26,795 nucleotides of DNA from an uncultured Ruminococcus sp. (lineage in GTDB: Bacteria; Bacillota; Clostridia; Oscillospirales; Acutalibacteraceae), in NCBI GenBank assembly GCA_902783065.1, contig CACZPV010000079.1:1-26795 (forward strand), written 5' to 3'. Of this stretch, positions 2,822 through 26,456 are shown one piece after another (within the stretch, counting starts at the first letter, position 1; each line of letters starts with the position of its first letter). The position numbers and the translations under genes were made by a program. Under the pieces are notes generated by a model. The model did no database searches. It saw nothing but the letters and a program-made list of their open reading frames with translations, and was not told the origin of the DNA.

Positions 2822-2825
2822 ATAT

Positions 2826-8872: not shown

Positions 8873-8878
8873 ATAACT

Positions 8879-10567: not shown

Positions 10568-10616
10568 ATTCGTGATGCTGTAGGTGTATCTGATTATGGT
10601 GAAAGGACGGTTTTTT

Positions 10617-11627
10617 ATGACAATTCTTGTAACAGGCGGTGCGGGCTATATTGGAAGTCATACCTGCGTTGAATTACTTAATGCAGGGTATGAAGTAGTA
10701 GTAGTCGATAATTATTATAACAGTGTACCTGAGGTGCTGAACAGGGTAGAAAAGATTAGCGGAAAAACACTTAAACGCTATGATTGTGATATCCGTGACA
10801 AAGAAGGTCTGGAAAAGGTATTTACCGAAAATAAAATTGATGCGGTAATTCATTTTGCAGGATTGAAAGCGGTAGGAGAATCTACAAAACTGCCTCTTTT
10901 ATATTATGAAAATAATATTTCCGGCAGTGTTGTACTTTTTGAGGTTATGAGCAGCTTTGATTGTAAGAAAATCGTATTCAGTTCTTCTGCGACAGTTTAT
11001 GGAAATAACCCGATACCGTACAAAGAAGATATGATTACAGGAGATGTCAGCAGTCCTTACGGACGTACAAAGCATTTTATTGAACAGATTTTGAGTGATG
11101 TTTATCGTTCGGATAATGATTGGAGTATTTCATTGCTGAGATATTTTAATCCTATCGGTGCCCATGAAAGCGGTTTGATAGGAGAGGATCCGAATGGTAT
11201 TCCAAATAATTTGATGCCATATATTTCAAGAGTGGCTATTGGAAAACTGGAAAAACTGACTGTTTTTGGCGGAGATTACGAAACAAAAGACGGTACATGT
11301 ATCCGTGATTATATCCATGTTGTGGATCTGGCAAAGGCTCATCTTTGTGCAGTTTCCAAGATTCTTGAAACAACGGGTATAGAAGCTTATAATATTGGTA
11401 ACGGAAAAGGCTACAGTGTTCTGGATATCATACATGCATTTGAAAAAGCAAGCGGAAAAAAACTGAATTATGTTATAGGTGAAAGACGGGAGGGTGATCT
11501 TCCGGCATTTTATGCAGATGCGTCAAAAGCTAATCATGAACTTGGATGGAAAGCTCAGTACGATATTGATAAGATGTGTGAGGATACATGGAATTTTCAG
11601 ACAAGAAACCCTGACGGTATCAAGTAA
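10617..11627 (+). CDS. galE: UDP-glucose 4-epimerase
   Basis: TGGAGYIGSH Rossmann motif, HFAGLKAVGES, FSSSATVYG, catalytic YGRTK, LRYFNPIGAH, NNLMPY, RDYIHV. ATG 10617 follows AAAGGA. Confidence 0.97.
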   Translation: MTILVTGGAGYIGSHTCVELLNAGYEVVVVDNYYNSVPEVLNRVEKISGKTLKRYDCDIRDKEGLEKVFTENKIDAVIHFAGLKAVGESTKLPLLYYENNISGSVVLFEVMSSFDCKKIVFSSSATVYGNNPIPYKEDMITGDVSSPYGRTKHFIEQILSDVYRSDNDWSISLLRYFNPIGAHESGLIGEDPNGIPNNLMPYISRVAIGKLEKLTVFGGDYETKDGTCIRDYIHVVDLAKAHLCAVSKILETTGIEAYNIGNGKGYSVLDIIHAFEKASGKKLNYVIGERREGDLPAFYADASKANHELGWKAQYDIDKMCEDTWNFQTRNPDGIK

Positions 11628-11645
11628 TAAAAAAACAAGAATTAT

Positions 11646-11688
11646 TTCCCACATATGGACATTCTGTTTGTGTGTGGGATGTTTTTTT
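11646..11688 (+). terminator. Intrinsic terminator after galE
   Basis: Stem TCCCACATATGGACA-ttc-TGTTTGTGTGTGGGA (with G-U pairs) followed by GTTTTTTT. Confidence 0.75.
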
Positions 11689-11796
11689 CTGAATCTATGA
11701 AAATCGGTATTTATGAACAGTAAAAATGTAGTCATAATGCGGAGTTTGATTTATTGTTTTGTATTTAAAAATCACAGGACAGACGTGCTTATTTTA

Positions 11797-11830
11797 CCCA
11801 TCACCTAACCCCTCACTAGTGGGAAGGGGA
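11797..11830. repeat. Single degenerate REP-like palindromic element
   Basis: CCCATCACCTAACCCCTCACTAGTGGGAAGGGGA, a GC-rich island in AT-rich intergenic DNA. It resembles CCCTCACCCTAACCCTCTCCC-N4-GGGAGAGGG type extragenic palindromes (recalled from memory). Only one copy in the window. Confidence 0.35.
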
Positions 11831-11950
11831 ATTGTTGCACAAGAGGATAAGATTAACACGTAGGGAATTTCCTCATCATAATTCATGGAGCCGATTTTAC
11901 GGATTCAGTACTCTGTTAAAATAAATGAGTAAACACTTTTTTACAATTTG

Positions 11951-11979
11951 TTGATAATTTGTTCAGTATGTTGTATAAT
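11951..11979 (+). promoter_or_regulatory. Sigma-A type promoter for block A
   Basis: TTGATA (11951-11956), 17-bp spacer, TATAAT (11974-11979). Confidence 0.7.
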
Positions 11980-12068
11980 AGAATTGATTTTAATTGTCAG
12001 GTATGAAATAATAAACATGGATTTATGATTGATCGCTCTTTCTGGAGCAGACTTAAACTAAGTTTGAT

Positions 12069-13760
12069 TTGTGGGATGATGAGATGATAAACGAAAAAGC
12101 AGAAATATTATCTTTATTTCAACTGAATGATGAGGAAAAACAAAAACTCCGTAAAAAATTTTTTAATATTGATCCTGCTGTATGCGTATGCAGTGATTTT
12201 ACAGCTTTGCTTCATTCTGATGGAACGGTTGAAGTGAATGGAAAAACAGAATTTAATGAACAAAAGGATGAATGGTATAGTATAACAAAAATATGCGGAG
12301 GCAACGGTCATATAATCGGACTGCGTTCAGACGGAACGGTTGTTGCTTTTGGTGATAACAGCTGTGGTCAGTGTAATGTGAGTGACTGGAATAATATTAA
12401 GGATATTTTTGCAAATCACTATTATAGTGCTGCTGTAACAGATAAGGAGCAGCTTCTTCTGACCGGCAGAATGGATTTCGGAAGTTTTACGGAAGAAGAT
12501 TTGGAAGATAAGATTAACACTGCTTTCAGTGCCTGCGATAATAATAACGAGGTGCGTTTTTCCGAGGTTTTTGCTTTGGTAGAAGGATTGAAAAACTATG
12601 TTGGAGAGCATATCAAGAAACAAGATGATGCAGCGACAAAGGAAGAACTTAAAAAGGAGCTTCGTAAAGAATTGCTGCAGGAACTGAAGAAGAAAGAAAC
12701 TGATCTGGAACAGATTAAAAAGGATCTTAAAAAGGAAATTCTGATTGAACTGCGTACGGAAATCCGCTCGGTTATACCTGCATCTAACAAAGCAGCTTCC
12801 GGCAGAACTGTTAATGCAGAAAAACAATGTATGAAATGCATGAAAATGTATAAGGGCGGAAAATTTTGTCCTTATTGCGGTTTTGACAGTAACAGTCATC
12901 AGGATAGTCCATTGCTTCCGCTCGGACGTATGATAAAAAACGGAAAATATATAATTGGTGCTAAAATATCACAGAATCATGAAGGCGTAAAATATGCAGG
13001 CTACAGCACAGATTTGAAATCAAAAGTGGTGATTCATGAGTTTTTGCCTCTGGAATTATGTACAAGAGCGGTTCAGAGTGAGTATGTTACGGTCAAAAGC
13101 GGTTCGGATAAAAAATTTGCGGAACTGAGAGAAAAATTTCTGAAATACTATTATGCTATTTCTTCTGCTTCTAAAGGACATGCATATGCAAAAATACATG
13201 ATGTATTTTCTGATGGAGGTACATCCTATATTGTTGAAGAATTTGTTGACGGAGCAACTTTAAAGGATTATGTTTTACGCAAGGGCAGAGGATTGGATTG
13301 GAATACTGTCAGCAGACAGTTTCGCCCTATAGCAGCATTGCTGGCAGATGTACATGCAAAGGGTGAAGGTCATTATGCTGTATCACCTGATCATATTATT
13401 GTCTGCTCGAACGGAGAATTCAGGCTGGTAGGTTTTGCAGTGGAGGATGTCAGACACATTGGAGGTCTTATCAGTGCAGATCTTGTAAAGGGATGCAGTG
13501 CTATTGAACAGTATGATGCCAGAGCCAGACTGGATGAAACAACAGATATATATGGTTTTACAGCTTCTGTATGCTATGCCCTTACAGGAATACTGATAGA
13601 AGATGCCAATACCAGAAAAGAACGCAGTGCTATCTCTATTCCCGCAGCAGTTTTTAATACACTGCCTAAAACAGCGGTAGATCTGATTAAAGGCGGATTG
13701 TGGGTATCTCAGGCATCAAGAATAAGAACCTTTAAGTATATCCTGAATTATATAATCTGA
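12069..13760 (+). CDS. RCC1-like repeats + coiled coil + Zn ribbon + Ser/Thr pseudokinase domain protein
   Basis: About 2.5 RCC1/BLIP-II-like repeats (TALLHSDGTV, IIGLRSDGTVVAFGDNSCGQCNVSDW), ELKKELRKELLQEL segment, CMKC-x9-CPYC, and a Hanks-kinase fold with catalytic motifs replaced (SQNHEG, VVIH, HYAVSPDHI, LVGF) but TDIYG kept. Start is TTG 12069 or ATG 12084. Confidence 0.8.
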   Translation: MWDDEMINEKAEILSLFQLNDEEKQKLRKKFFNIDPAVCVCSDFTALLHSDGTVEVNGKTEFNEQKDEWYSITKICGGNGHIIGLRSDGTVVAFGDNSCGQCNVSDWNNIKDIFANHYYSAAVTDKEQLLLTGRMDFGSFTEEDLEDKINTAFSACDNNNEVRFSEVFALVEGLKNYVGEHIKKQDDAATKEELKKELRKELLQELKKKETDLEQIKKDLKKEILIELRTEIRSVIPASNKAASGRTVNAEKQCMKCMKMYKGGKFCPYCGFDSNSHQDSPLLPLGRMIKNGKYIIGAKISQNHEGVKYAGYSTDLKSKVVIHEFLPLELCTRAVQSEYVTVKSGSDKKFAELREKFLKYYYAISSASKGHAYAKIHDVFSDGGTSYIVEEFVDGATLKDYVLRKGRGLDWNTVSRQFRPIAALLADVHAKGEGHYAVSPDHIIVCSNGEFRLVGFAVEDVRHIGGLISADLVKGCSAIEQYDARARLDETTDIYGFTASVCYALTGILIEDANTRKERSAISIPAAVFNTLPKTAVDLIKGGLWVSQASRIRTFKYILNYII

Positions 13761-13959
13761 TTAACAAATCAATTATTTTATATACTGCCTGAATCTGTGA
13801 AATCCGGCAGGTCTTTTATAATCCATTATCCCTTGGAACTGCACTCCTTGGAATGACAATGGCAATCATTAATGACGTTTACTATAAAAATTGTCTTGGT
13901 ATGTGTATTATCATGCCAATGATGAGAAGTTTTACAAAGAACGGAAAGCAGGTGAACAA

Positions 13960-15657
13960 ATGCAGATGTTTGATGCCGCAAAGGGATTATTCCATTTATT
14001 TTTTTCAAATGATGATGATAAGTTTTATACTGACAGCTATGTAAGAACTGATTTGACGTTTCATTTATATGATCGTCTGACGGCAATGAATTATGAGTAT
14101 ATTTATGCTCTGTCGGGAGAAGGTTATTATAATTGCATATTTACATCGCTTGATAATATCAGTGCTGAGGCACTGGAAGACAGGAGCAGTCAGGGCAGAC
14201 TGATCGGATCGCTTTTCGGCAGCAAAAGACAAGCTGCCGAAAATTCTTCCCGTTTTCAGGAAAGACAAAGAAGCGGTAAGAAAACAATTCATCTGGATGA
14301 AATGAACTTCGAGGAAAATTTTAAAAATCTGATTGCTATGATGAAGCGTAAAAGCAAGGCAGCAGTGATTATTCCGATTGGTATTTTTAATTCACTTTGT
14401 CGTTTTCCCGAAATCATTGATGAACTGGAACGGATCAACGCTAAGAATTATCAGGATAATAACAGACATATTTTTGTTATTACTTCTTCTATGTATGCGG
14501 GGGAAAGTATTCGCTTTTTTAAGCCCAATGCTGAAACAGCATTGGAAGGCAATTTGTTTAATAACAGCGGTTTATTTCCCGAATTAGAAGCTTATTATCA
14601 TGATTATTATGATGCTTCCATGAATTTTTATATATACGATAATCTGAAACGACTGATGGGGGATAAGATTATTTTTTATAATTCCCTGAGTTTTGAACAT
14701 ATCCGAAGAATGGTAACAAGATATGCTATACATACCGGATATATGAAAGAAATGAGTATTAATAGTATTAATGCTCTTACAGGTGTGATTTACGCATATT
14801 ATCAATCCGCTGAATACCGAAAGGAGCATCATCTATCATTTCCTGAAAATCCTAAAAGATCACTTTCTGTGGTGGAAACGGCATTGAGAAATGACCGAAG
14901 TTTGCGGGAAGCTGCAGCTGAAGCAGCAAAAGATCTGCAATCACGCAGTGACATTTATAAATATATTTGCAGCGTATATCCGGATTGTGTGGACAGTGAA
15001 AATGGAATATATATGATAGGCGGCAGCAGCTACGGTGAGGACCTTGGAAAACTTATAGCTATCAAAAAAATATGTATGGGAAGATACGGAGAATGTCCTG
15101 CAGAATTAGACCGGGCAATAAATATGATGTCCAAACCGTGTATTGATACAGCTGTAAGTTTCAGTGCAGCAAATTTCAGAGAGAAAGTTATTGATATTGT
15201 TCATAAGAATATAGTAAATGAATTAACTGATTATGTGGATCTTGATTTGATTCAGTTTATGCTGAAAGCACTGAATTATTATTTTGATTATTTTCAGACA
15301 TCCTCTGTGTTGAAGGGGGATGCAGTAACAGCAAAGGATCTGAGCTTTGATTTTTATAAAAATATTATGCACCTTGCGGAAAGATTGTCAAATGCCCGTA
15401 AATCAAAACAGGAATTAAATGATAAACTGCTTTTGATGGAAGAACAAAATGATATGCAGGGAATAGAAAGCACCAGAGGTTATCTTGAACAGACAGAAGC
15501 AATGATACAAAATCTGGAACGAACCATAGAAAATGCAGAAAATATACTGTCTTCTCCGTTATCGGAAGCAAATGCAAGATCTGTGATCAGCGGCATGAAA
15601 TATGAAACTCAGAATCTGAAAAAGATAGATAACCCGTCAAACAGAATTTATAATTAA
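13960..15657 (+). CDS. Hypothetical protein (alpha/beta N-terminal domain, possibly a degenerate AAA+-like fold; C-terminal coiled coil)
   Basis: Long ORF with typical codon use. ATG 13960 follows AGGTGA (ORF-track start 13891). No Walker A and no TM helix. Confidence 0.7.
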   Translation: MQMFDAAKGLFHLFFSNDDDKFYTDSYVRTDLTFHLYDRLTAMNYEYIYALSGEGYYNCIFTSLDNISAEALEDRSSQGRLIGSLFGSKRQAAENSSRFQERQRSGKKTIHLDEMNFEENFKNLIAMMKRKSKAAVIIPIGIFNSLCRFPEIIDELERINAKNYQDNNRHIFVITSSMYAGESIRFFKPNAETALEGNLFNNSGLFPELEAYYHDYYDASMNFYIYDNLKRLMGDKIIFYNSLSFEHIRRMVTRYAIHTGYMKEMSINSINALTGVIYAYYQSAEYRKEHHLSFPENPKRSLSVVETALRNDRSLREAAAEAAKDLQSRSDIYKYICSVYPDCVDSENGIYMIGGSSYGEDLGKLIAIKKICMGRYGECPAELDRAINMMSKPCIDTAVSFSAANFREKVIDIVHKNIVNELTDYVDLDLIQFMLKALNYYFDYFQTSSVLKGDAVTAKDLSFDFYKNIMHLAERLSNARKSKQELNDKLLLMEEQNDMQGIESTRGYLEQTEAMIQNLERTIENAENILSSPLSEANARSVISGMKYETQNLKKIDNPSNRIYN

Positions 15658-15731
15658 TGGGAAACCTTTTTTACGCTGATTTTATGTTATAAGCGGAGTA
15701 AACAGGAGAAATAGTTACGAGGAGAATAGCA

Positions 15732-17390
15732 ATGGTAAATTTAGGAATAGACTTCGGCAGTACCTACACGCTGATCTCTCATTACCGGAACGACAGAAAT
15801 ACACCTGAGGCAATCAGCCTTGATAATATCAGTCCATATATTCCTTCTGTCGTTTCCTATAATAAACGAAGAAATGAATACAAGATTGGCAAGGCTGCTA
15901 AGAATCTTACAGGAAATAAAAATATCATTATATACAAGGCTTTTAAGATGCTTTTGAATGAACAGATGAATGAAGAAAACCTACGGGAAAGATATTATGA
16001 CGAAGTAAATACGCCTGAAAAAATAGCTTCTCTGTTTCTTGAAAAGGTACTGAAAAGTGCGCTGTCAAAAATCGGTGAGGACAGGATCGGTAAACTTGTG
16101 GTTGGTGTTCCGGAAGTATGGGGACAAAGCTTCAATACCTTTGACGGACGTGCTGTACTGCATCAGATATGCAGTTCGTTTGATTTTGTTGAAGAAGCAG
16201 TTGTTGTCAGTGAACCTGCCTGTGCAAGTGCTTTTTTTGCGTATAATTATAAACTGATCCGTAAGGAAAATTTTGACGGAAAAGTACTGTTAATCGATTA
16301 CGGCGGAGGTACGCTGGATATTACACTTACAAAGGTATCTTCCAATGGTGATACTATGGAGGTTAAAGTTGAAAAGCGTGATGGTGCCGGAGAAAATACC
16401 GACAGGGAAATAGGCAACGCAGGTATTAAATATATGGAAAAGGTTACTGAGAGGGCAATACTGGACAGTGAAGCTTTTTCTGATCTGGAAACAGTTGAAT
16501 ATGACGGCGATTTTATGAAGGCTGTTGATGAACTTGAAGAAGTACTTATGAGTGATGCGGAAACTGTCGAGGATACTTTCAGAGAACTGGAATATACACC
16601 GGATGCGCTGGCGGATGAAGAATTGATTGAGCTTTTTTATAAAGGCGAAAGTGTAATTGTTACATACCGCCATCTAAACGATATTTATAATGAGTTTATT
16701 TATGGTGTGTTGAAAGAAAAGCTGGAAAATGTAACCGCAGATACCAATACGTATGAGGATAACTTTAAGATAGGAATTGTGGGAGGATTCGGAAATTTCT
16801 ATCTTGTAAAAAAGCAGATAAACGATATGTTTGAAATCAGTTCCAAAGATGAACGTACAGAGGGTATTATAGTTAACAGTGAGGATAGGGAAAGAGCAAT
16901 TTCTCTTGGTGCTTCACTGCTGGCGGATGAATTAATTACAATCAGAAAGACGGCTAATTTTTCGATCGGTATTTATGCTTTTCGTTCGCACAATGTTGTT
17001 GCCAAACACTATGCAATCAAATACAGACAGGATCTGGAGTATGACAAGATATATTACACTCTTGATGCAAAGGGAAACGATGTGCCGTATTTTACACCAT
17101 CAGGCAGGTTGGATAAATTTCTGGTGAATTTCAGCGATAACGAGGAACTTGCTTTTGGTGCAAATCCGAGAGCAGAATTAGCAGAAAAACTGAAAAATGT
17201 TGTGAATAATCAGTATATGATTGCAGCAGTCGGATTTTCGGTGGATGCTACTGATTCGATAACCATTCATGTGTCTGATTATGACTGGGAAACAGGACAA
17301 AGAAGCGAACATCCGGTAAAAAGTATTAAACTTTCTACCATCAAGACGATGTTTGATGTAGTAGCACTCAATTCAAGAGGTGACAGCTGA
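15732..17390 (+). CDS. Hsp70-family (actin-like ATPase) protein, non-canonical; not the housekeeping DnaK
   Basis: LGIDFGSTYT (phosphate 1), AFKMLL (DnaK K70 equivalent), VSEPACA (E171 equivalent), IDYGGGTLD (phosphate 2), VGGFGNF (adenosine), ISLGASLLA (connect 2). Short divergent C-terminus; SD GGAG at 15721. Confidence 0.88.
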   Translation: MVNLGIDFGSTYTLISHYRNDRNTPEAISLDNISPYIPSVVSYNKRRNEYKIGKAAKNLTGNKNIIIYKAFKMLLNEQMNEENLRERYYDEVNTPEKIASLFLEKVLKSALSKIGEDRIGKLVVGVPEVWGQSFNTFDGRAVLHQICSSFDFVEEAVVVSEPACASAFFAYNYKLIRKENFDGKVLLIDYGGGTLDITLTKVSSNGDTMEVKVEKRDGAGENTDREIGNAGIKYMEKVTERAILDSEAFSDLETVEYDGDFMKAVDELEEVLMSDAETVEDTFRELEYTPDALADEELIELFYKGESVIVTYRHLNDIYNEFIYGVLKEKLENVTADTNTYEDNFKIGIVGGFGNFYLVKKQINDMFEISSKDERTEGIIVNSEDRERAISLGASLLADELITIRKTANFSIGIYAFRSHNVVAKHYAIKYRQDLEYDKIYYTLDAKGNDVPYFTPSGRLDKFLVNFSDNEELAFGANPRAELAEKLKNVVNNQYMIAAVGFSVDATDSITIHVSDYDWETGQRSEHPVKSIKLSTIKTMFDVVALNSRGDS

Positions 17391-19423
17391 TGGATTTTCA
17401 AAGAACGAACAGAACACTTCGATCGCTCGAAAAAAAGAATACGCTTACCTTAGAAGATACACTTGGCGTAATCAACGATGTTTTTGCTGATGTACAGGGT
17501 ATTGCCGGATGTTCTCCTGATAAGTTGGAACTGGGAGAACTCAGGGCAGCACTGACAGGTTTGTCTGCTGTGGGACGTGTTTTGCTGCAAATCAATAAAA
17601 CAAAGGCAGATGAAATCGGAACTGCGGCAGACAGAAAAAAGCGGTTGGATAAGATTTATGGAGAGATTGAAAATGTTTCCCGCGAGATTGACGAGGGAAG
17701 CGATGTGATTGAAAAGCTGTCATCAGAACAAAGAGAGTTGGAAAACAGGAAACTGATATTGGAAGAAAGCAACAGGGAAGCTGCATCGCTGGAAGAAAAA
17801 TGCCGCCAGTTGAAAGAAGAAACCGATAAGATCAGTACAGCTGATATGGATGAACTTAACGAAAAAATATCCGGTCAGCAAAAACAGCTGAATGAAGCGA
17901 AAGAAAGATTCAATGACACTTATAATGAATATATACGGAGACAGGATATATTTCAAAGACTTGAAAATGATATCAGTACAAAAAAATCAGAAGCTGATAC
18001 ACTTGCACAGCAGATAAGTAATGCAGAAGAAAAGATTGCCGGATATGAAAAACAGTGCAGAGAATCAGAAGAAAAACTCAGTGAACTTTCTGAAAATGAA
18101 AGCGAAAATAAGGCAAGGGCTGAGCGGCTTGAGCAGGAATATACAGAAGCTTTGTCACAGAAGGAAGAAATTATGTATTCTGTCTTACCTTCCTTGCAGG
18201 AAAAACTGGAAAATATGAACCGTCAGCTTGCAGAAACTAAAAAGCAGTCGGAAGAACTTTCTGATGTGCTGAAGAAAAAAGAAAATGAACTGAATTTGCA
18301 GACAGATGAATTGGAAGAAAAAGCTATGAAAATTCGTAATTTTTCTTCCGAATTTGAAGCGGAAATCGAAAAGAAAAAAACTGAATGTGAAATGTTAGAG
18401 TCGGAAAATAAAAAACTGCAGTCGGATAAAGAAAAGATGGACAGTGATATACAGAAGATAAAGCAACAGCAGGAGAAACTTTGTGCAGAAATTCGTTCAC
18501 TTAAAGCAGAACTGAAAGCAAATGAAGATCTTGCTGAATCACACAGAGATGAAATTGCAAGATACAGGGATATAACAATTCCGGCAGCTGTTATTGCACT
18601 CAAAAAACGTGAAGATGCCTTGGATGAATATGCTGCCAGAAGCGGTGAACTTAAAATGCAGACTGCACAAAAAGAGGATGAACTAAATACACTGAAAAAT
18701 AAGATAGAAAGCCAGAATAGTGAACTGGAAGTTTTTACTAAACAATATGATACTCTTAATTCTGAAATCAATATGAACAGTCAGCGCCTGGAAGAAATAC
18801 AGGAACAGATTGGCAGTCTTGATAATGAGCGTCAGAAAATGATGGCAGAGATCAGCAGCAAAGAGGAACAACTTGGCATGTCTGATATTGATTCTCTCAA
18901 AAATAAGCTTGACGAAGTGTGTAAAGCACTGGATGAAGCAAATGCAGCAAAGATAAATCTGACAGAGGAAATCAATCAAAAAAATGCTGAAATAGCAGAA
19001 ATTACAGAAAAATGTGGTAATATGCAAAATGAAATTCGGGAACTTGCGGCTGATGCTAATAATGAAACCGAAAAACTGACAGAACTTGAGGAAAACCGTA
19101 AACAAATTACAGAGGAAAGGCAGCGTGTAAGAAAGCAGCATGAAGAATTGACAGAGATTCTCCGAAGTCTTAATTCTCCTGAAAGTGAAGCAAATCTGAG
19201 AATTTGCGAAGCTGAAATCGATGTAATGCAGGATGCAGTAGATAAGCTTTTTCCTGATGTACCATTGAGTACACTTACGCTGTTTGAGCGCAGAGATGAA
19301 ACAGAAAAAAAGAATCGGTATTTTAAAGAGGAAATTGTCAGAATAAGGCAGCTTCTTGAAAATTATCAATCACAGTACAAGATACTGATTAATGCACTCG
19401 AAAGGAGCAGCGGAGCACTATGA
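17390..19423 (+). CDS. Long coiled-coil protein (no ATPase head, no TM helix)
   Basis: Heptad-rich E/K/Q/L sequence over roughly aa 80-610; start overlaps the Hsp70 stop (TGATG). Confidence 0.8.
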   Translation: MDFQRTNRTLRSLEKKNTLTLEDTLGVINDVFADVQGIAGCSPDKLELGELRAALTGLSAVGRVLLQINKTKADEIGTAADRKKRLDKIYGEIENVSREIDEGSDVIEKLSSEQRELENRKLILEESNREAASLEEKCRQLKEETDKISTADMDELNEKISGQQKQLNEAKERFNDTYNEYIRRQDIFQRLENDISTKKSEADTLAQQISNAEEKIAGYEKQCRESEEKLSELSENESENKARAERLEQEYTEALSQKEEIMYSVLPSLQEKLENMNRQLAETKKQSEELSDVLKKKENELNLQTDELEEKAMKIRNFSSEFEAEIEKKKTECEMLESENKKLQSDKEKMDSDIQKIKQQQEKLCAEIRSLKAELKANEDLAESHRDEIARYRDITIPAAVIALKKREDALDEYAARSGELKMQTAQKEDELNTLKNKIESQNSELEVFTKQYDTLNSEINMNSQRLEEIQEQIGSLDNERQKMMAEISSKEEQLGMSDIDSLKNKLDEVCKALDEANAAKINLTEEINQKNAEIAEITEKCGNMQNEIRELAADANNETEKLTELEENRKQITEERQRVRKQHEELTEILRSLNSPESEANLRICEAEIDVMQDAVDKLFPDVPLSTLTLFERRDETEKKNRYFKEEIVRIRQLLENYQSQYKILINALERSSGAL

Positions 19424-19908
19424 TATGCAGATTTTGTAAAAGTGAAATGGAAGACGGAGAAATCCGATGCGGTTTTTGCGGTTTTACCCATATTAACTTT
19501 ACCGAAGAAGACAGTATGGGTGCAATGGATAGAATGCTGGAAAGCTATAAAAATAAAAAACTCGGTGGAATTAAAATAGAGCTTATCAGCTACCATTATA
19601 CTGTAGAGAATGGAAAAATTACGGAAAATGGAGAAAACATTATTCTGCTTGCCGATGCAGCAGAGCTTTCTGAGGATAAAATCAAGTGGAATGATGCGGG
19701 TTTTTACGGACCGGACAGCGAGAAACAGATATTTCTTACTATAAGAACAGGACAGGAAGAAAAAATAAATCACAGTCTGGAAATTAAGATTCCTGTCAGC
19801 GAAGAACTGAAAATCGGGGTAGTAATGGTTCCTGGACTGAAAGCAAAAATTGCAGCCGGCAATCCGGATGATTATGTCCTTTCCGATGAATTTTCGGTTT
19901 TAGACTAA
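19420..19908 (+). CDS. N-terminal Zn-ribbon protein with a beta-rich C-terminal domain
   Basis: CRFC-x10-CGFC; ATGA overlap with the upstream stop codon; SD GGAG just upstream. Confidence 0.78.
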   Translation: MICRFCKSEMEDGEIRCGFCGFTHINFTEEDSMGAMDRMLESYKNKKLGGIKIELISYHYTVENGKITENGENIILLADAAELSEDKIKWNDAGFYGPDSEKQIFLTIRTGQEEKINHSLEIKIPVSEELKIGVVMVPGLKAKIAAGNPDDYVLSDEFSVLD

Positions 19909-20091
19909 AACATATTTTTAGTTATTTGCAGTGACTGATTCAACATTTGACTTGAATTACTGAAAAGTCTGAATCACGGATATTAAGCATGAATATCATA
20001 AACAGAGCGATGCATAGAAGCTTACCTCAATGCCGTGTAAGGCAATGACTTAAAACCTGAATAAAACTCCTGATAAATAGTATTAATCCTA

Positions 20092-20119
20092 TTGAATTTT
20101 TTGATAAATTTTGTATAAT
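20092..20119 (+). promoter_or_regulatory. Sigma-A type promoter for block B (ESCRT-like operon)
   Basis: TTGAAT (20092-20097), 16-bp spacer, TATAAT (20114-20119); GGAGG SD ahead of ATG 20181. Confidence 0.6.
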
Positions 20120-20180
20120 AGAAGTAGCGGCGCTTTGTACAGCGATCCGGAAGTTAACAGTTTAAACGGAGGGTAAGTAA

Positions 20181-21374
20181 ATGGCGTTTTTATTTGGAAA
20201 AAAGAAAAAAGAAAACGAAGAACAGGCTTCTCAGATGCCTGTTGTAAGGGAAGATCCTAAAAAACAATTGGATATAACAAGACAGAATATGGTAAAAATG
20301 CTTTCAGCATTGGATACGATCAGTATAAATAAAATAAGGGCAAGTGTTTCAGAAGAAATTTTGTCGAATGCTGAATTATCGGAGTTTGACAGGGATCTGA
20401 AAACAGTTAAGGCAGTAATCGGAAAACAGACATCTTCACAGCTGATGCTGGCTGAAAGTGACGCAATTGATCAGGAACTGCTGTTTTTTGCGGAACATAT
20501 CGAAGATGAAATGTGTCAGGGACATTTCCTTGTTTCAGAAACCTATATGAAGGCAATCAAATTTGGAATTTCAAAAGGCCATGAGGCAATAAAGGAATCT
20601 GATATAGAAAATAAAGATGATATTCTGAATCAGCGTCTGGAAATTATTAAACATTATAAACTGATCGCAGAATTGAACAGGAAGATTGCCGCTTATCAGG
20701 ATAGTATGGTAAAGCTTAATGAAAAACTGGCAAAATTACAGTCGGATTACTCAGAAGCTAAAAGTATTGCGAAAGAAGAAAGTATCAGGCGCAAGGATAT
20801 GTATGATAAAATTATTCGTATGAGTCCTGCAGAGGTTGCTACGGCTACACCGGAAATACAGAATTTTGCGGCAATATTTTCAACTGTTAACGAACTGAAA
20901 AGCCAGATAAATGGTGTCAAAACCAGTATTTCCGGAATGAATTCCAACGTTCAGGAAATTAAGAGGGCTATCGGAAATACAGAAAATGCACTGCTTTCAA
21001 TCAATAGTATTACTACTGAAAAAGAACGCGAAGAAATAGAGAGGGTTAACAGACAATATATAGAAAATATGAAAAGTCTTCAGGATCAGGTATTTGAATT
21101 TGAAGATTTGTTTTCTGAACTGGATGCGTCCATTGACGCAATTAATTCAGACCCTCGCATCATCAGGAAAATGCTTAAGGATATGACAAGCTACAGAAAC
21201 ATTGTTCATCAGGATGAGATTGATCAGAAGGCCGAAGAAGAAGGTATGAAGGCTTATGAGGAATATCTCAGAAAACAACAGGAACAGCTTGATGACGATA
21301 TCAGGGGTATGGAGGAAGATCTCGATAACGATGGTATAAATAACGAACCCGAAAAGCATAAGATCAGCAACTGA
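20181..21374 (+). CDS. Helical coiled-coil protein, candidate ESCRT-III/Snf7-PspA superfamily member with an extra N-terminal helical domain
   Basis: N-terminus MAFLFGKKKK; long helical hairpin about aa 148-275 broken at MSPAEVATATPE; further helices and an acidic tail; first gene of the Snf7-like/Vps4-like operon. The CDS is secure, the family call is tentative. Confidence 0.5.
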   Translation: MAFLFGKKKKENEEQASQMPVVREDPKKQLDITRQNMVKMLSALDTISINKIRASVSEEILSNAELSEFDRDLKTVKAVIGKQTSSQLMLAESDAIDQELLFFAEHIEDEMCQGHFLVSETYMKAIKFGISKGHEAIKESDIENKDDILNQRLEIIKHYKLIAELNRKIAAYQDSMVKLNEKLAKLQSDYSEAKSIAKEESIRRKDMYDKIIRMSPAEVATATPEIQNFAAIFSTVNELKSQINGVKTSISGMNSNVQEIKRAIGNTENALLSINSITTEKEREEIERVNRQYIENMKSLQDQVFEFEDLFSELDASIDAINSDPRIIRKMLKDMTSYRNIVHQDEIDQKAEEEGMKAYEEYLRKQQEQLDDDIRGMEEDLDNDGINNEPEKHKISN

Positions 21375-21390
21375 CAAGGAGGTAACAGTC

Positions 21391-22203
21391 ATGGCATTTG
21401 GTATTTTTAAAAGTAAGGCTGAAAGAGAACAGGAAAAGCTTGATAAGGAAATTGCTAAAACAGAAAGATATCTGAGTGATGACAAGAAAATGAGTGATAT
21501 CAATAAAAAACGTAAAGAACTGGATAAGAAAAAGGCAAGACGTGACGATAGTAATTTCAGGGATAAAGTTTTTGAAACTAATGTTAAATTGAATAAGCTG
21601 GAAGAAAAGTTTGTTATGAAAATCGTGACGGAATCGAATGCTGTAAAGTATGAACGTGAAAGAAATCAGAGTACCAAAAAGTCCGAAAAAAGATTGAAAA
21701 ATGCGTATCTTTCACTTGTTATGGTTAAACATGCAAAGAAAAGATTGATTGAAATAGAAAATGAAAGAGATTGGAATCTTGCAATGAGAGATATGAGCGG
21801 AGCAATAAAAACAATGAATGCGATTTCTGTTGGTTCACAGAATGTACAAAAGATGCTGTTCCGTGCAAGAGTACAGAAGATGGGTTGGATGGAAGATAAT
21901 GAATCAAGCGGTTGGTTCAACGAACAGACAGAGGAAAAAGTTTCTAATGAAGAAGTTCAGAAGGTGATGAATAGCGATCCTGTTGATCTGATGGTGGCAG
22001 ATGATATCTATGATACACTTCTGGATGATCCTACTACTTCCATGATCAATGATTATGCTGAAAGAAGTATTGGTGTTGATGCTGATTTTGATGAAATGTC
22101 AGATATGTCGAAAAAGACAGAGCAGACCATGGACACAGAAACGGATATGGCTATTTCTGATGAGGAATTTGATGATTACCTCAGAGATTGGGGAAAAGTA
22201 TAA
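21391..22203 (+). CDS. Snf7/ESCRT-III-like protein (CHMP1/2/3-like) with a C-terminal MIM1-like helix
   Basis: Basic N-half and acidic C-half; MAFGIFKSK N-terminus; AMRDMSGAIKTMN (aa 131-143) matches the CHMP2-type AMKGVTKAMGTMN pattern; C-terminal DEEFDDYLRDW has MIM1 hydrophobic spacing; directly upstream of a MIT-AAA ATPase. SD AAGGAGG. Confidence 0.68.
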   Translation: MAFGIFKSKAEREQEKLDKEIAKTERYLSDDKKMSDINKKRKELDKKKARRDDSNFRDKVFETNVKLNKLEEKFVMKIVTESNAVKYERERNQSTKKSEKRLKNAYLSLVMVKHAKKRLIEIENERDWNLAMRDMSGAIKTMNAISVGSQNVQKMLFRARVQKMGWMEDNESSGWFNEQTEEKVSNEEVQKVMNSDPVDLMVADDIYDTLLDDPTTSMINDYAERSIGVDADFDEMSDMSKKTEQTMDTETDMAISDEEFDDYLRDWGKV

Positions 22204-22215
22204 ATGAATATTTCA

Positions 22216-22242
22216 TTTCGCCCCGCCGTTGACGGGGCGAAA
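22216..22242 (+). promoter_or_regulatory. Intra-operon GC-rich stem-loop without a U-tract (candidate mRNA stability/processing element)
   Basis: Perfect 10-bp stem TTTCGCCCCG/CGGGGCGAAA with a 7-nt loop; no poly-T follows on either strand. Confidence 0.55.
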
Positions 22243-22276
22243 ATAAAACCTGATAAAACGAAAGAAGTGATTGAGT

Positions 22277-23548
22277 ATGGAACGTAATTATGCAGTGGCT
22301 GTACAGAAAAGAGAAAATCTGTACAGAGCTTATATTAATAAAGCACAGCTTGTACTTCAAAGCAGCGGTGGTAAGCATACGGCAGAGGAATGTCAGTATC
22401 TTCAGAGAGCAGCTGAACTGCAAAGCGAAATGGCAGATATGACAATCGGAGAAGAAAGAAATCATCATTTGAGGGAAAAGGAAACAATCAGCGCTAAAAT
22501 CCTTTCGGTTCTTAAAGAAATTGATCCTCAAAAGGCATTGGAATTTGAACAGGGTAAAACTGGTGAAAAGAAAACATCACAGACAACAGGTAAAGGCGGC
22601 GGTGACAGCGATAAGGAAAAGCTGGATGCTATGGCAAAATCATGGTATAAGGAAGCGCCGAATCATTCTTTTGCACAGGTTTCCGGTATGGCGGAACTGA
22701 AAGCAAAATTGGCTGACTGTGTTACCAATTCAAACTGTGAAGCGTTGCTTGATTTCCTGAAAATACCAAGATTAAACACCTACTTTTTCGTAGGGCCTCC
22801 CGGATGCGGTAAAACCTATATTATTGAAGCATTTGCTAATGAACTTGTTAATATGAAGGATAAGGATTATAAATTTCTTTCACTGGTTGGTTCGGATATT
22901 ATCAGCCGTTATGTTGGTGATGCGGAAAAAATTGTTACAAGAATGTTTGAGGAAGCAGAAAACTGTGCTCCCTGTATTGTGTTTATCGATGAAATTGACG
23001 GTGTATGCCGTAACCGTTCACAGAAATCTATGCCGGAATACGCAGCCTCTATTACAACATCCTTCCTGACAGGTTATAACAGAATAAAAAATTCCGGAAA
23101 GTCTATTATCTTTATCGGTGCGACTAATTATCCGCAGCGTGTAGACTCTGCTATGCTGGACAGAGCTGAGGTAATCCGTGTACCGCTTCCTGACGAAGAA
23201 GCAAGATGCAATGCATTTCGTATGCAGTTTGAAGGAATTGTTTCTTTGGCAGAAGGTATTACTTATGATGATATGGCATCTGTAACTGACGGTTATAATT
23301 ATCGTGATATCGAGCGTGTTACTTCCATTATGAAAAAATCTGTTTTTGAACAGGTAATGCAGCAGGCAGGTAATGAACAGGCTGCTATTGATATGCTGAA
23401 AAATGGCAGCTTTAAATTAAAGAAAAGTGATTTTGAAACTGCTATGGCTGATTTTAAACCGTCTTCAAAGAAGGATATATTGGATGCAATCGATAAGTGG
23501 GAGCGTAATCTTAACAACGACAGTTATCTGATTGACGACGAAGAATAA
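22277..23548 (+). CDS. Vps4/CdvC-like AAA+ ATPase with an N-terminal MIT-like three-helix domain
   Basis: PNHSFAQVSGMAELKAKL, Walker A GPPGCGKT (22793-22816), pore loop ISRYVGDAEK, Walker B IVFIDE (DE at 22988-22993), GATNYP..VDSAMLDR..VPLPD, TDGYNYRDI, and C-terminal LKKSDFETAMADFKPSSKKDILDAIDKW helix as in Vps4/katanin/spastin. ORF track starts at TTG 22271; ATG 22277 is likely. Confidence 0.82.
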   Translation: MERNYAVAVQKRENLYRAYINKAQLVLQSSGGKHTAEECQYLQRAAELQSEMADMTIGEERNHHLREKETISAKILSVLKEIDPQKALEFEQGKTGEKKTSQTTGKGGGDSDKEKLDAMAKSWYKEAPNHSFAQVSGMAELKAKLADCVTNSNCEALLDFLKIPRLNTYFFVGPPGCGKTYIIEAFANELVNMKDKDYKFLSLVGSDIISRYVGDAEKIVTRMFEEAENCAPCIVFIDEIDGVCRNRSQKSMPEYAASITTSFLTGYNRIKNSGKSIIFIGATNYPQRVDSAMLDRAEVIRVPLPDEEARCNAFRMQFEGIVSLAEGITYDDMASVTDGYNYRDIERVTSIMKKSVFEQVMQQAGNEQAAIDMLKNGSFKLKKSDFETAMADFKPSSKKDILDAIDKWERNLNNDSYLIDDEE

Positions 23549-23561
23549 GCGGAGGCTATTA

Positions 23562-24566
23562 ATGTCAGCAGAAGTTTTGGAAAAATATAAACAAAAAATT
23601 CCTAAGGACGACAACGAACATTACATCAGCCGTAAACGATACGAAACAATGCTTGTGGGCTGCCTGCCTTTTGAGGATCAGGAACTTTATTTTAAAACGT
23701 TGTCTTCAAAAAGTGCCATGATTCTGACAGGAAAAAAAGGCTGCGGCAAAAGAACTTTGGAAGAAGCGTTTCTGGAAGAATACGGAGAAATGTTTCCGGC
23801 TTTGCTGCGTTTTCCGTTTTGTCAGCTTGCCGAAGAAGGAGAAGAAACACTGGAAGCGGAACTGAAAGATTTTTTCTCGGCTTTGGCGAACAAAGAGGCA
23901 GAAGATGACGAAGCAGCATACATGGTTTCTCTTGGTGAAATCAATGCTGTAGATACTATGCCTAAGGTATGCAGCATGCTTGCACATGGATTGGAAAATA
24001 CCATTAAAAACGGAAAAAACATATGTATTATAACGGCTGTTTATGATGGAGAAGTCAGGAATCTGCCGAAAAGCATCCGGAAATCGGTGCTGGTATGCAG
24101 GGTTGATCCGCCTTCGCTGGAAGAACGTCTGCAGTTTTTTGAATCCTCGCTCAATTCTCTGCTTGGCTTTGTTAATGATGTGACGGGTATTGATTTCATG
24201 GCAGAGTATACAGAAGGTTTTACTTTTGATGACCTTAATGATCTCATACGTAATCTTCATGCTTTCTTAAAAGCAAAGTTTGTTACTGATGTTGCTGAAA
24301 CAAGCGGCGGAGAGATCGGGGAAGTGGAAATGGCGGATATTGGAATTGATAAGGTTAATCTGGAAAAGGACGATTTTATTTATCTTGCCGATAATTATAA
24401 AGTAGAAAAGCCGCAGCCTGCCGGAGCATTTGATATGAGTGCTCTTACGGAGGTTCTTTCTAATCTCACGCTTAATCTGGCTTCAGGTGCAGAAGAAAAG
24501 AAACCGGAGGAGAATTCACCATTTGCCCTTCTGGATGACGATGATGATCCGGACAACATTTTTTGA
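23562..24566 (+). CDS. Degenerate (probably inactive) AAA+ ATPase paralogue
   Basis: Walker A GKKGCGKR (Thr/Ser replaced by Arg), Walker B YMVSLGE (Asp lost), SRH remnant LPKSIRKSVLVCRVDPPSLEERLQFF, lid MAEYTEGFTFDDL; acidic tail. ATG 23562 follows GGAGG (23551-23555). Confidence 0.78.
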   Translation: MSAEVLEKYKQKIPKDDNEHYISRKRYETMLVGCLPFEDQELYFKTLSSKSAMILTGKKGCGKRTLEEAFLEEYGEMFPALLRFPFCQLAEEGEETLEAELKDFFSALANKEAEDDEAAYMVSLGEINAVDTMPKVCSMLAHGLENTIKNGKNICIITAVYDGEVRNLPKSIRKSVLVCRVDPPSLEERLQFFESSLNSLLGFVNDVTGIDFMAEYTEGFTFDDLNDLIRNLHAFLKAKFVTDVAETSGGEIGEVEMADIGIDKVNLEKDDFIYLADNYKVEKPQPAGAFDMSALTEVLSNLTLNLASGAEEKKPEENSPFALLDDDDDPDNIF

Positions 24567-24613
24567 TTATGGAAATGCTTTTTGATTCATAACTTTCAAT
24601 AGCAGATATATTT

Positions 24614-24671
24614 GGGCTGCCGCCATTACTCCCAGTTCCAGATTTGGGATGGGAGTAATCTTTCTGTGCCC
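24614..24671 (+). terminator. Hairpin/terminator-like structure at the end of block B
   Basis: Perfect 10-bp stem ATTACTCCCA (24625-24634)/TGGGAGTAAT (24650-24659), inner TTCCA/TGGGA pairing, followed by CTTTCTGT (weak U-tract). Confidence 0.5.
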
Positions 24672-24758
24672 GATGTTTGTATGATGATCTATTGAAGAAT
24701 GGAATCAGGTTGTGTAAAATAATAGTAAAGAAATATAGCGGATAACAGTGGTGATGAT

Positions 24759-26456
24759 ATGGAAGAATTATATAAATGTAAGAAATGCGGTCATGAATTT
24801 GATATTGAGGAAGTTTATTGCCCTATGTGCAAGGAAGAAGCCATAGGGGAGGTAAAGTTTACTTCTCCTCTCAAACAAAAGGAGGAAGGATCCAAAAGAC
24901 TTCATATAATCCTGATTATCTGTGCTGGTATATTATTGACGGCAGTTATCCTGGGCGTGTTTCTGATGAAACCGTATGCGGAGGGAGAAAACACGGATCA
25001 CAGCAGCGAGAACATCAAGGTACAAACGGAAGTTCCAAATTTTATCGGTAATACTGAACAGCGTGCAAATGAAAAAGCCAGTATGGCAGGTTTACGACTT
25101 GATATTGAATATGAAGCAAATGATAAATATGACGAAGGTCAGGTGTTCTATCAGGAAGTTGAAGAAATGACAAAGGTTGACAGGGATTCTCATATTAAGG
25201 TTAAAATTGCAACGAGTAATCCGGTTAATAATGTTGTACATGACGATAAAGTTATTATGCCGTCATTGACAGGACTTACCATGGAGCAGGCAGGAAAAGA
25301 ACTGGATGTCAGAAAATTGAAATATGAGGTCGTATATCTCGGCAGTGATGAAGTTGATGAAGGTTATGTAATATCACAAACTATTGAACCAGGTAGCATG
25401 ATTGATCCTGATACAGATATCTATCTGTCTGTTTGTAAAAAGACAGAAAGAGTTCTTGAAAAAATTACTATGGAAAAGCTTCCTGAAAGAATTACTTATT
25501 TTGTGGATGAAAATCGGATTGATTTTAACGGACTGCAGATCAGAGCTTTCTATACGGATGGTTCACAGGATCTTGTTACTGCTGATTCTTTGGGAGAAGT
25601 ATCTGAAACAGAGATTATAAATAATTATTCTGTGATGGGTTCTCCCGATCTGATTACGGTAGACAATCTGAATCATATTGTTGGAACGCAGACGCTGACG
25701 GTTTATTACAGAAACAAAACGACAACATTTGATGTTAATATTGTTGAGGATACAAAGGAAGAAAATGTGACGCTTGCCTCTATAAAAATTACCAAGCCGG
25801 CATCGGTGACAGAATATTCTCTCATGCTGGAGCCGGATGAACCTGCTGTGGATAAATATTGTAATACCAATCTCAAGGGACTGGAGGTAACCGCTTATTT
25901 TAGTGACGGTACCGAAAGAATACTTTCACCCTATGTAATGCAAGATGCACAGAAAAATCATGGTATCGATTATACATGGCAGACAGATGCTGGCTGTTCG
26001 GTCAGCAACATAAATATATACCGTGAAGGTAAACAAACAGTAGAAATTAACTACTATGGGAAAAAAACATCTTATGAAATTGTTGTTCTTAAAAACAGCA
26101 GCAATATCTGTTTGTCGGATCAATTTCCTGGTGGAGTTGAGGTCAGTCTGGATTATGACGGAATACTTGAAGTCAGTGGAACCGGAATTATTACAGATGG
26201 CTTCTGGAACGGTTATATCAACTCTGTCAAAAAAATTGTGATCAACAAAGGTATTACAGGAATCGAGAATACAGCTTTCAACAGATGCTGCAAAGCCGTA
26301 AGTATCACAATACCGGAGAGTGTGGAAAATATACAGGAATATTCTTTTAAGAATTGGACTTTCTCACAAAAAATATTTGTTCTGGGGAAGGATACGGTAC
26401 CTGAGAAATGGATCAATTTCTACAATACCTCTGCAAACATCATCTGGAACCCATAA
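24759..26456 (+). CDS. Single-pass membrane protein: Zn ribbon - TM - 2x PASTA - 2x bacterial Ig-like - BspA-type LRR remnant
   Basis: CKKC-x10-CPMC; TM aa 48-70; PASTA repeats (VPNFIGNTEQRA..., MPSLTGLTMEQA...DEVDEGYVISQTIEPG); Ig-like repeats (ITMEKLPERITYFVDE.IDFNGLQIRAFYTDGS; IKITKPASVTEY...LKGLEVTAYFSDGT); LRR_5-like VKKIVINKGITGIENTAF...ITIPESVENIQEYSF. Confidence 0.82.
   Translation: MEELYKCKKCGHEFDIEEVYCPMCKEEAIGEVKFTSPLKQKEEGSKRLHIILIICAGILLTAVILGVFLMKPYAEGENTDHSSENIKVQTEVPNFIGNTEQRANEKASMAGLRLDIEYEANDKYDEGQVFYQEVEEMTKVDRDSHIKVKIATSNPVNNVVHDDKVIMPSLTGLTMEQAGKELDVRKLKYEVVYLGSDEVDEGYVISQTIEPGSMIDPDTDIYLSVCKKTERVLEKITMEKLPERITYFVDENRIDFNGLQIRAFYTDGSQDLVTADSLGEVSETEIINNYSVMGSPDLITVDNLNHIVGTQTLTVYYRNKTTTFDVNIVEDTKEENVTLASIKITKPASVTEYSLMLEPDEPAVDKYCNTNLKGLEVTAYFSDGTERILSPYVMQDAQKNHGIDYTWQTDAGCSVSNINIYREGKQTVEINYYGKKTSYEIVVLKNSSNICLSDQFPGGVEVSLDYDGILEVSGTGIITDGFWNGYINSVKKIVINKGITGIENTAFNRCCKAVSITIPESVENIQEYSFKNWTFSQKIFVLGKDTVPEKWINFYNTSANIIWNP

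Follow-up and report, generated by a model that had tools for sequence, protein, structure and literature searches.

Results

Gene content of the locus

We analyzed a 26,795-nucleotide stretch (the window) of contig CACZPV010000079.1 from an uncultured Ruminococcus sp. The source is a rumen Clostridia metagenome-assembled genome (MAG) that is 77% complete; the contig has 37% G+C, and the nearest kin are uncultured rumen "Ruminococcus sp." RUG genomes. Ten open reading frames (ORFs) on the + strand, named here g01 to g10, fill positions 12069-26456, in accordance with an earlier note on this DNA that had described ten co-oriented genes there. That note read the interval as one sensor-scaffold-remodeller system rich in dead enzymes, with a block A and a block B that meet at the g05-g06 spacer and a block C that holds the PASTA gene g10. 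Our comparisons point instead to an accessory cassette of rumen and gut Clostridia comprising g01 to g09, with the eight genes g02 to g09 as its conserved part.

The first gene, g01 (12069-13760), encodes N-terminal RCC1 repeats, a coiled coil, a short zinc ribbon, and a C-terminal predicted pseudokinase, and behaves as a variable accessory (adaptor) gene. It is followed by g02 (13891-15657), with a degenerate AAA+-like domain (AAA, ATPases associated with diverse cellular activities; residues ~23-377) and a C-terminal helical bundle (residues 378-588); by g03 (15732-17390), a divergent Hsp70-like (actin-fold) ATPase whose nucleotide-binding motifs are intact; by g04 (17390-19423), a long coiled-coil protein; and by g05 (19420-19908), which joins an N-terminal zinc ribbon to a domain of about 140 residues of unknown fold. 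A spacer of 272 nucleotides (19909-20180) precedes g06 (20181-21374), a helical protein homologous to the C-terminal domain of g02. [quoted passage not shown] Pfam gave no match for g02, g05, g06, g07, or g09. The last gene, g10 (24759-26456), encodes a zinc ribbon, a transmembrane (TM) helix, two PASTA domains, Big_3, and LRR_5.

For g01 (TTG 12069), g08 (TTG 22271), and g09 (TTG 23532), the starts are the first in-frame ones. The listed start of g02 (TTG 13891) is likely too early; homologs start at the equivalent of Met24, residues 1 to 22 are modeled with a predicted local distance difference test (pLDDT) below 50, and the ATG at 13960 probably marks the real start. The overlaps that the earlier note had taken for translational coupling, TGATG at 17388-17392 (g03/g04) and ATGA at 19420-19423 (g04/g05), are both present.

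Conservation of the cassette

We scanned one genome per prokaryotic species with g03 as the anchor and found 181 loci, of which the best 80 were examined for taxonomy. Hidden Markov models were then built for each gene family and mapped on all loci; 56 loci had enough flanking sequence (the long loci), and 83 were used in neighbor comparisons. All of the best 80 loci came from rumen or gut Clostridia (Ruminococcus-type MAGs, Oscillospiraceae, Acutalibacteraceae, Lachnospiraceae, Blautia, and Eubacterium), and they include one isolate, Blautia intestinihominis CLA-AA-H95. All eight families (g02 to g09, ~13960-24566 in the window) were found in 46 of the 56 long loci, and g06 to g08 in 53. The gene order g02-g03-g04-g05-g06-g07-g08-g09 was nearly constant, the few permutations placing g03 first or moving g03-g05 to the end. 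By tblastn on congeneric loci, the order g02-g03-g04-g05-g06-g07-g08(-g09) was recovered in close relatives and in two divergent copies (G008 and G017); identities fall to 20-55% in divergent same-genus copies, with the order unchanged. When a g07 profile was run against 1.84 billion representative proteins, it gave about 90 clusters. Two remote members on long contigs (E values of 1e-17 and 2.5e-35) had the same eight-gene arrangement, and three further remote relatives lay on contigs too short to show gene context. Our first class-wide search, made with a narrow g07 profile, had suggested that the cassette is confined to one genus; this was overturned by the g03-anchored scan.

Because synteny is kept across the g03-anchored loci, blocks A and B are, judged by gene order, a single inherited unit. 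The earlier view of the whole locus as one system thus stands for blocks A and B, which are adjacent and co-oriented in 53 of the 56 long loci, and falls for block C, as g10 is not conserved alongside them. Independent occurrence of the three blocks in other genomes, which that view had named as evidence against itself, was found in the gene-neighborhood census for C and, a few genomes with the g03-g04-g05 trio alone excepted, not for A and B.

The distribution is rare and patchy. Single-protein searches of the 24 other genomes of the genus found g06 in five and g02 in seven (5 to 7 of 24), all five g06 genomes also having g02, and at most 1 of 398 other genomes in an even class-wide sample was positive. 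One MAG holds two divergent copies of the cassette (L032 and L068). Within the genus, identity is 56-87% for g03, g06, g07, and g08 and 38-63% for g01, g02, g04, g05, and g09, next to 92% for the adjoining epimerase. A congeneric cassette lies at the same chromosomal site, directly after the epimerase (L016, G004:C5, 2700-5507, aligned with 10584-13760 of the window). There the epimerase is 92% identical and the adjacent g01 only 44%. This sharp break between epimerase and g01 suggests allelic replacement or diversifying evolution.

The spacer between g05 and g06 measures 20 to 90 nucleotides in most relatives, compared with 272 here. Longer spacers hold a gene for a small protein with two to four TM helices, found between g05 and g06 in 22 of 52 loci (about 40%); a remnant of this gene was looked for in the window's spacer, and none was found. 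Three of the 56 long loci have the g03-g04-g05 trio but lack g06-g08, as does G240, the one other positive genome in the 399-genome class-wide sample. In G240, a distant variant (L109, G240:C61, 2814-15280), the trio stands with more zinc-ribbon proteins and an 853-residue protein whose AAA region is g02/g09-like. The Hsp70-like genes g03 to g05 therefore appear to be a module able to combine with other partners.

Motors and pseudo-enzymes

The N-terminal part of g03 (residues 4 to 242) matched Pfam HSP70 with an E value of 2.6e-12 and the nucleotide-binding domains of BiP and DnaK in the PDB with an E value of 1e-8. Its motifs DFGST, DYGGGTLD, and VGGFGNF were invariant in seven diverse homologs. 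No Hsp70 model matched the C-terminal 300 residues, and no DnaJ/J-domain or GrpE partner was found in the cassette. The neighboring g04 gave coiled-coil-type matches only (SMC, Rad50, and JetC); its homologs range from about 240 to 1,258 residues, and the family is retained in the cassette. The g05 family is present in nearly all cassettes.

Pfam AAA matched g08 with an E value of 3.7e-31, and among NCBIfam models, CDC48 scored 133 bits and CdvC 113 bits. The motifs GPPGCGKT (Walker A), S[RK][YF]VG (pore loop), FIDEID (Walker B), ATN (sensor-1), and LDR (Arg finger) are kept in 62 to 70 of 71 homologs. By these motifs, g08 is an active classical AAA+ ATPase; its pore-loop and second region of homology motifs look similar to those of the meiotic clade. 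The 120 best relatives in the database are all g08-family members with generic names only. A profile of the g08 N-terminal domain found no MIT chain in the PDB.

The earlier note had called the second AAA a pseudo-enzyme, and the family comparison agrees. Aligned by hhalign, g09 and g08 match with a probability of 99.9 (E value of 1.4e-37). Across 57 members of the g09 family, GxxGxGK is kept, the Walker A Thr is replaced by Arg or His in 40, Walker B is degenerate, the aromatic pore loop is missing, and the sensor-1 Asn is changed to Glu or Asp. On this motif loss, g09 is an AAA+ pseudo-ATPase.

An AlphaFold2 model of g02 (pLDDT, 89.6; predicted template modeling score [pTM], 0.88) has an alpha/beta-plus-lid module at residues 23-377 and a helical bundle at 378-588. 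When the model was compared with the whole PDB (VIA), about 25 of the best 50 rows were classical AAA ATPases, with Z of 7.0-8.6 over 184 to 209 residues at a root mean square deviation (rmsd) of 4-5.5 Å; among them were 55LCC, FtsH, p97, spastin, Vps4, Rix7, Pex1/6, and Msp1. The top Foldseek matches were uniformly AAA+ but weak (E value of 0.02 or worse): ClpA, ClpB, ClpC, Skd3, RFC, and RAD17. An ESM Atlas look-up gave a weak lead, iSTAND/AAA_22 clusters at 0.80. No sequence match of g02 to AAA was found by Pfam or hhalign, and neither a conserved P-loop Lys nor a Walker B acid was seen in 63 homologs. Together, these results make g02 a probable pseudo-AAA protein without Walker motifs, at modest fold scores. 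The earlier count of "possibly three" dead enzymes accordingly gains a third candidate in g02, with its AAA-like fold, at the grade of probable.

The C-terminal half of g02 also links it to g06. The g06 family matched it by hhalign with a probability of 97.4 (E value of 1.5e-11, 242 columns), compared with 35 for g04 and 3.6 for g07. This common domain therefore provides a protein-level link between blocks A and B. In addition, an acidic stretch followed by a short hydrophobic-Asn tail ends 34 of 69 g06 and 11 of 76 g02 proteins and none of 506 other ORFs, which suggests a common docking partner.

The helical proteins g06 and g07

The N terminus of g06 is hydrophobic-polybasic (MAFLFGKKKK), and its C terminus is acidic; g07 homologs end in an acidic amphipathic helix. 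A hydrophobic-then-polybasic N terminus was present in 50 of 70 g06 and 34 of 69 g07 proteins, and in 54 of 548 background ORFs (10%). These N termini presumably resemble those of CHMP2A, CHMP3, and CHMP6, and the acidic C-terminal helices presumably resemble MIM helices. In several loci, the g06 or g07 gene is duplicated.

In the AlphaFold2 model of g07 (pLDDT, 87; pTM, 0.75), the hairpin at residues 53-123 superposes on Snf7, Shrub, Asgard ESCRT-IIIB, CHMP, and PspA (Z of 7.4-8.8; rmsd of 1.1-1.6 Å; about 71 residues), with equal scores on unrelated hairpins and Z too low to be informative for helical proteins. Foldseek ranked CdvB and CdvB2 first but at E values of 0.5-0.8, and a search of AlphaFold-DB clusters with the model returned nothing significant. 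In the ESM Atlas, g07 gave a weak lead, a Snf7-carrying cluster at rank 12 with a score of 0.89, and g06 gave nothing. A six-frame genome search with the Snf7 and PspA_IM30 families did not match the locus. The predicted complex of the g08 N-terminal domain (residues 1-110) and the g07 tail (residues 205-270) scored 0.01 with a partner pLDDT of 42, which is uninformative either way.

The variable slot and the neighbor g10

In g01, Pfam RCC1_2 was matched with an E value of 2e-9, next to a weak kinase match, and there was a clear match to the solved kinase PpkA (E value of 1.6e-7). Aligned to PpkA, the Lys of VAIK is changed to His, HRD to HYA, and Asn to His, and DFG has become GF, with Gly for the DFG Asp; the fold family is kept. 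The catalytic Lys, HRD Asp, Asn, and DFG Asp are thus all lost, and g01 is by these residues a pseudokinase, as had been proposed. Its kinase-like domain was seen only in near relatives and in a single distant locus (L022).

In 19 of 83 loci, proteins with RCC1 repeats border the cassette, on the upstream side of g02 or the downstream side of g09. When 108 adjoining genes on the same strand were assigned to Pfam families, the counts were RCC1 (9), LRR_5 (9), DUF285 (6), protein kinases (5), Sel1 (4), zinc ribbons (4), and HerA-type ATPases (4). The gene g01 fills a variable accessory slot that is occupied elsewhere by RCC1, LRR/DUF285, Sel1, or kinase proteins. In a divergent same-genus copy (L015, G008:C5), a full seven-blade RCC1 propeller and a protein with a zinc ribbon and an FHA domain (551-1531 and 2455-3783) lie downstream of g09. 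Phospho-signaling around the cassette is hinted at, as one version has an FHA phosphothreonine reader and another has a pseudokinase.

A similar short zinc ribbon (CxxC-x10-CxxC, often followed by GF) occurs in g01 (from residue 254; 12828-12878), g05 (from residue 3; 19426-19479), and g10 (24777-24830). Common to these three proteins and recurrent in neighbors elsewhere, it could be a shared docking module. Pfam matched g10 with PASTA (E value of 4e-22) and LRR_5 (E value of 6e-8). No counterpart of this PASTA gene stands beside the cassette in the 83 loci, the sole match being one distant fragment; g10 is a mere neighbor, outside the conserved cassette.

Defense-type accessories

In one subtype (11 loci), a BrxL-like ATPase is inserted between g08 and g09, and in 4 loci a DndH-like ATPase lies alongside the cassette (E values down to 7e-179). 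Some neighboring kinases match MADS components, and both mad6- and mad8-like neighbors occur. No integrase or restriction genes were present among the 25 commonest flank families. Patchiness, the divergence pattern, and the BrxL-like, DndH-like, and kinase accessories favor a conflict or stress-response role with exchangeable sensors, which is plausible.

Flanking genes and transcription

Upstream of the locus, the window carries housekeeping genes (1-11627: polA, a low-molecular-weight phosphatase, GNAT, tsaD, pth, mfd, a TPR protein, and a GalE-type epimerase). The low-molecular-weight phosphotyrosine phosphatase and the GNAT acetyltransferase, at 2333-3272 between polA and tsaD, appear to be ordinary housekeeping neighbors. 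A strong terminator at 11647-11679, just upstream of the locus, closes these genes, and promoter-like sites lie before g01 (11951-11979) and before g06 (20092-20119, in the spacer). The earlier note saw no canonical terminator between blocks A and B, and indeed no terminator-like site was found in any intergenic spacer of the locus. The U-less hairpins that it placed near 19936-19976 did not hold up, folding no better than shuffled sequence (z of -0.31), and the same comparison found no significant RNA structure in the g05-g06 spacer.

Rumen metatranscriptome assemblies from two studies contain the locus. The contigs of one run cover 29 of 30 bins, and the g05-g06 spacer is covered by contigs from three runs across both studies. 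One 3.4-kb contig (21987-25351) runs from the end of g07 through g08 and g09 into the first part of g10. This coverage fits transcription through the locus. One RNA contig joins 13887 to 20061 through 39 unrelated bases and would imply a strain variant lacking g02 to g05; with only 20 matching bases on one side, we regard it as unreliable.

Discussion

We propose that g01 to g09 are one accessory cassette of rumen and gut Clostridia and, as a working model, that it handles a membrane polymer that is taken apart by an AAA ATPase; we put the probability of this reading at about 50%. At the core, by their conserved motifs, are two motors with intact catalytic residues, the Hsp70-like g03 and the AAA+ protein g08. 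In the model, g06 and g07 would bind membrane through their hydrophobic-polybasic N termini and form polymers of the ESCRT-III/PspA kind. The ATPase g08, probably with its dead paralog g09, would recognize the acidic C-terminal tails of g06 and g07 and disassemble the polymer using ATP. Together with g04, g05, and the pseudo-AAA protein g02, which shares the C-terminal domain and tail of g06, g03 would nucleate, load, or regulate assembly. The fast-evolving dead enzymes and repeat proteins would set input specificity, and the likely trigger would be phage attack or envelope stress. The membrane link is proposed because a TM gene is frequent between g05 and g06 and the hydrophobic-polybasic N termini are kept. 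We infer the polymer, its disassembly by g08 and g09, the loader role of block A, and the trigger. A precedent exists in the remodeling of VIPP1, an ESCRT-III relative, by Hsp70 (PMC12798727).

Several observations weigh against this model. In PDB searches, g08 scored 180 bits against the D2 domain of CDC48/p97, compared with 121 bits against Vps4B. Pfam MIT was not found in g08 or its divergent copies at an E value of 10; MIT and Vps4_C were not detected in g08, were not among the families matched by at least 5 of 61 homologs, and were absent from the stored Pfam results of the 120 best g08 relatives. Snf7 (PF03357) and PspA_IM30 (PF04012) matched neither g06 nor g07 nor their divergent copies even at an E value of 10. 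Pfam assigned Snf7 or PspA to 0 of 71 members of the g07 family. Profile matching of this kind is insensitive, as the Snf7 model also failed its cut-off in a Sulfolobus control. Profile searches of the PDB gave nothing for g07 and coiled-coil noise only for g06, and the g07 hairpin fits unrelated hairpins equally well. PADLOC-DB v2 found no known defense system among the ten window proteins, giving generic matches only (PD-T4-6 and mad6 for the kinase fold, IetA and TRIP13 for AAA, and JetC and LmuB for the coiled coil). Neither a membrane protein nor a recognizable toxic effector is encoded in the window's version of the cassette, and the RNA-library contigs can neither exclude DNA carry-over nor prove a single transcript. 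The labels "Snf7-like" for g06 and g07 and "Vps4-like" for g08 in the earlier note are thus unconfirmed by any sequence test, with CDC48 D2 above Vps4B for g08, MIT and Vps4_C undetected, and weak fold matches for g07. The cassette may work like ESCRT-III/Vps4, a resemblance only rather than a demonstrated membership. The proposal in the earlier note that block A stands in for ESCRT-I/II or CdvA would hold only if g06, g07, and g08 are of the ESCRT-III/Vps4 kind.

A possible, though doubtful, explanation is a system directed against phages or mobile elements, with an output other than membrane remodeling. Its trigger overlaps with that of our model, and its output differs: repeat and pseudo-enzyme sensors would direct motors that unfold or sequester a target protein, or give over to DNA-acting accessories (BrxL-like or DndH/HerA-like), with g06 and g07 as adaptors or substrates. 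The rare, patchy distribution, the two divergent copies in one genome, and the slot that takes RCC1, LRR, Sel1, or kinase proteins all speak for it. So do the 11 loci with a BrxL-like ATPase, the DndH-, mad6-, and mad8-like neighbors, and the five components that diverge fast next to a housekeeping gene of 92% identity. Hsp70-like, coiled-coil, and zinc-ribbon modules also occur together in predicted defense systems such as type III CoCoNuT (PMC11090510), a combination that the cassette repeats. However, no known defense system was matched, and the window copy has no nuclease, TIR, protease, or DNA motor; its flanks are housekeeping genes, and integrase and restriction genes are missing from the 25 commonest flank families. 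This explanation also leaves the membrane-type motifs of g06 and g07 and the frequent TM gene without a role.

It is unlikely that g06 to g09 are a true bacterial ESCRT-III and Vps4 homolog with a housekeeping job (division, vesicle release, or spore engulfment) and block A as the upstream recruiter. The g07 hairpin, the ranking of CdvB and CdvB2 first by Foldseek, the duplication of g06 or g07 in several loci, the CdvC score of g08 (113 bits versus 133 for CDC48), and the presumed likeness of the end motifs to CHMP2A/3/6 and MIM speak for such a homolog. A gene set carried by 5 to 7 of 24 genomes of the genus and by no more than 1 of 398 across the class is unlike housekeeping, though, and the sequences carry no Snf7, PspA, MIT, or Vps4_C signal, with g06 unrelated to g07. 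That two or three unrelated operons (A, B, and C) merely lie side by side is very improbable, being largely refuted for A and B and standing only for C. The long spacer with its promoter-like site before g06, the g03-g04-g05 trio without g06-g08 in G240 and three of 56 loci, and the weak RNA-contig junction that skips 13887-20061 are what this explanation can cite. Against it, A and B adjoin co-oriented in 53 of the 56 long loci across two orders of Clostridia and down to 20% identity, g02 and g06 share a domain, and the spacer shrinks to 20-90 nucleotides in most relatives. Least probable of all is a split PASTA receptor kinase of the PrkC/PknB type, with g01 and g10 as its two parts, that flanks and controls the locus. 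The PknB_PASTA_kin model is matched by residues 39-237 of g10 (the TM-PASTA part) and by part of the g01 kinase domain, and both proteins have a similar short zinc ribbon; yet every catalytic residue is lost in g01, and PASTA genes are missing from all other cassettes that have a pseudokinase of the g01 type.

The membrane-polymer model can be compared with several known systems. Like archaeal Cdv (CdvB/CdvC) and eukaryotic ESCRT-III with VPS4, the cassette sets small helical-hairpin proteins, sometimes duplicated, beside a single-ring classical AAA+ ATPase whose N terminus forms a helical domain. The small proteins have hydrophobic-basic N termini and acidic amphipathic C-terminal helices, and a membrane protein is often co-encoded. 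It differs in having no detectable Snf7/PspA sequence homology and no MIT/Vps4_C signal, in an AAA domain that scores higher against CDC48 D2, and in the lack of relation between g06 and g07; its further parts are an Hsp70-like ATPase, a coiled coil, a zinc-ribbon protein, and two pseudo-AAA proteins, and it is bacterial, rare, and patchy. Ravi et al. described Vps4-like ATPases that were transferred to bacteria without snf7, as well as other AAA proteins with PspA or Snf7 next to them (PMC11237479). PspA/Vipp1 systems with Hsp70 remodeling (chloroplast HSP70B or cpHsc70-1 acting on VIPP1; PMC12798727) share with the cassette an Hsp70-type ATPase and helical membrane-binding polymers, the latter a candidate feature here. 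The cassette, however, has no PspA_IM30 match and no J-domain or nucleotide-exchange partner, and only the first ~240 residues of g03 match Pfam HSP70.

Two further likenesses concern the motors. As in the ClpB/Hsp104-DnaK bichaperone, AAA+ modules with helical or coiled-coil extensions are combined with an Hsp70, and as in mixed rings of active and inactive AAA subunits (Ycf2-FtsHi and Pex1/Pex6), dead AAA paralogs stand beside an active one; the fold matches of g02 include ClpB and FtsH-type proteins. The differences are that g02 lacks any Walker motif, that its fold scores are modest (Z of about 8), and that a shared ring is only conjectural here. BREX (BrxL), Dnd (DndH), MADS (mad6 kinase), and type III CoCoNuT (Hsp70-like CnuD and coiled coils; PMC11090510) resemble the cassette in being patchy, with variable sensor-like repeats and kinases. 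BrxL- or DndH-like ATPases are inserted in some versions of the cassette, and it too combines Hsp70-like, coiled-coil, and zinc-ribbon parts. However, the defining genes of those systems (PglZ/PglX, DndFG, McrBC-type GTPase, and methyltransferases) are absent, and the window version has no DNA-acting accessories. In the literature searched, no published description of this gene combination was found.

A more far-reaching version of the membrane-polymer model, which we regard as speculative, would make the cassette a bacterial ESCRT-III/Vps4 counterpart. In it, a dedicated AAA+ ring, made of a live subunit and one or two dead ones, would dismantle a membrane-binding helical polymer of g06/g07; its loader would be a private Hsp70 with a coiled-coil scaffold, and fast-evolving pseudo-enzyme and repeat sensors would trigger it in an immune or envelope-damage response of gut Clostridia.

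The eight conserved genes are currently without functional annotation. Present in 181 species genomes, including at least one cultured Blautia, the cassette is common enough to be studied, and it places helical, membrane-motif proteins beside an AAA unfoldase and a private Hsp70. Should the ESCRT analogy be true, it would offer a bacterial model for polymer loading and recycling and for the roles of dead AAA and kinase paralogs. As a bacterial ESCRT-III/Vps4 counterpart, it would be a machine that surveys say bacteria lack; as a defense system, it would represent a new type with several motors, found in the gut microbiome.

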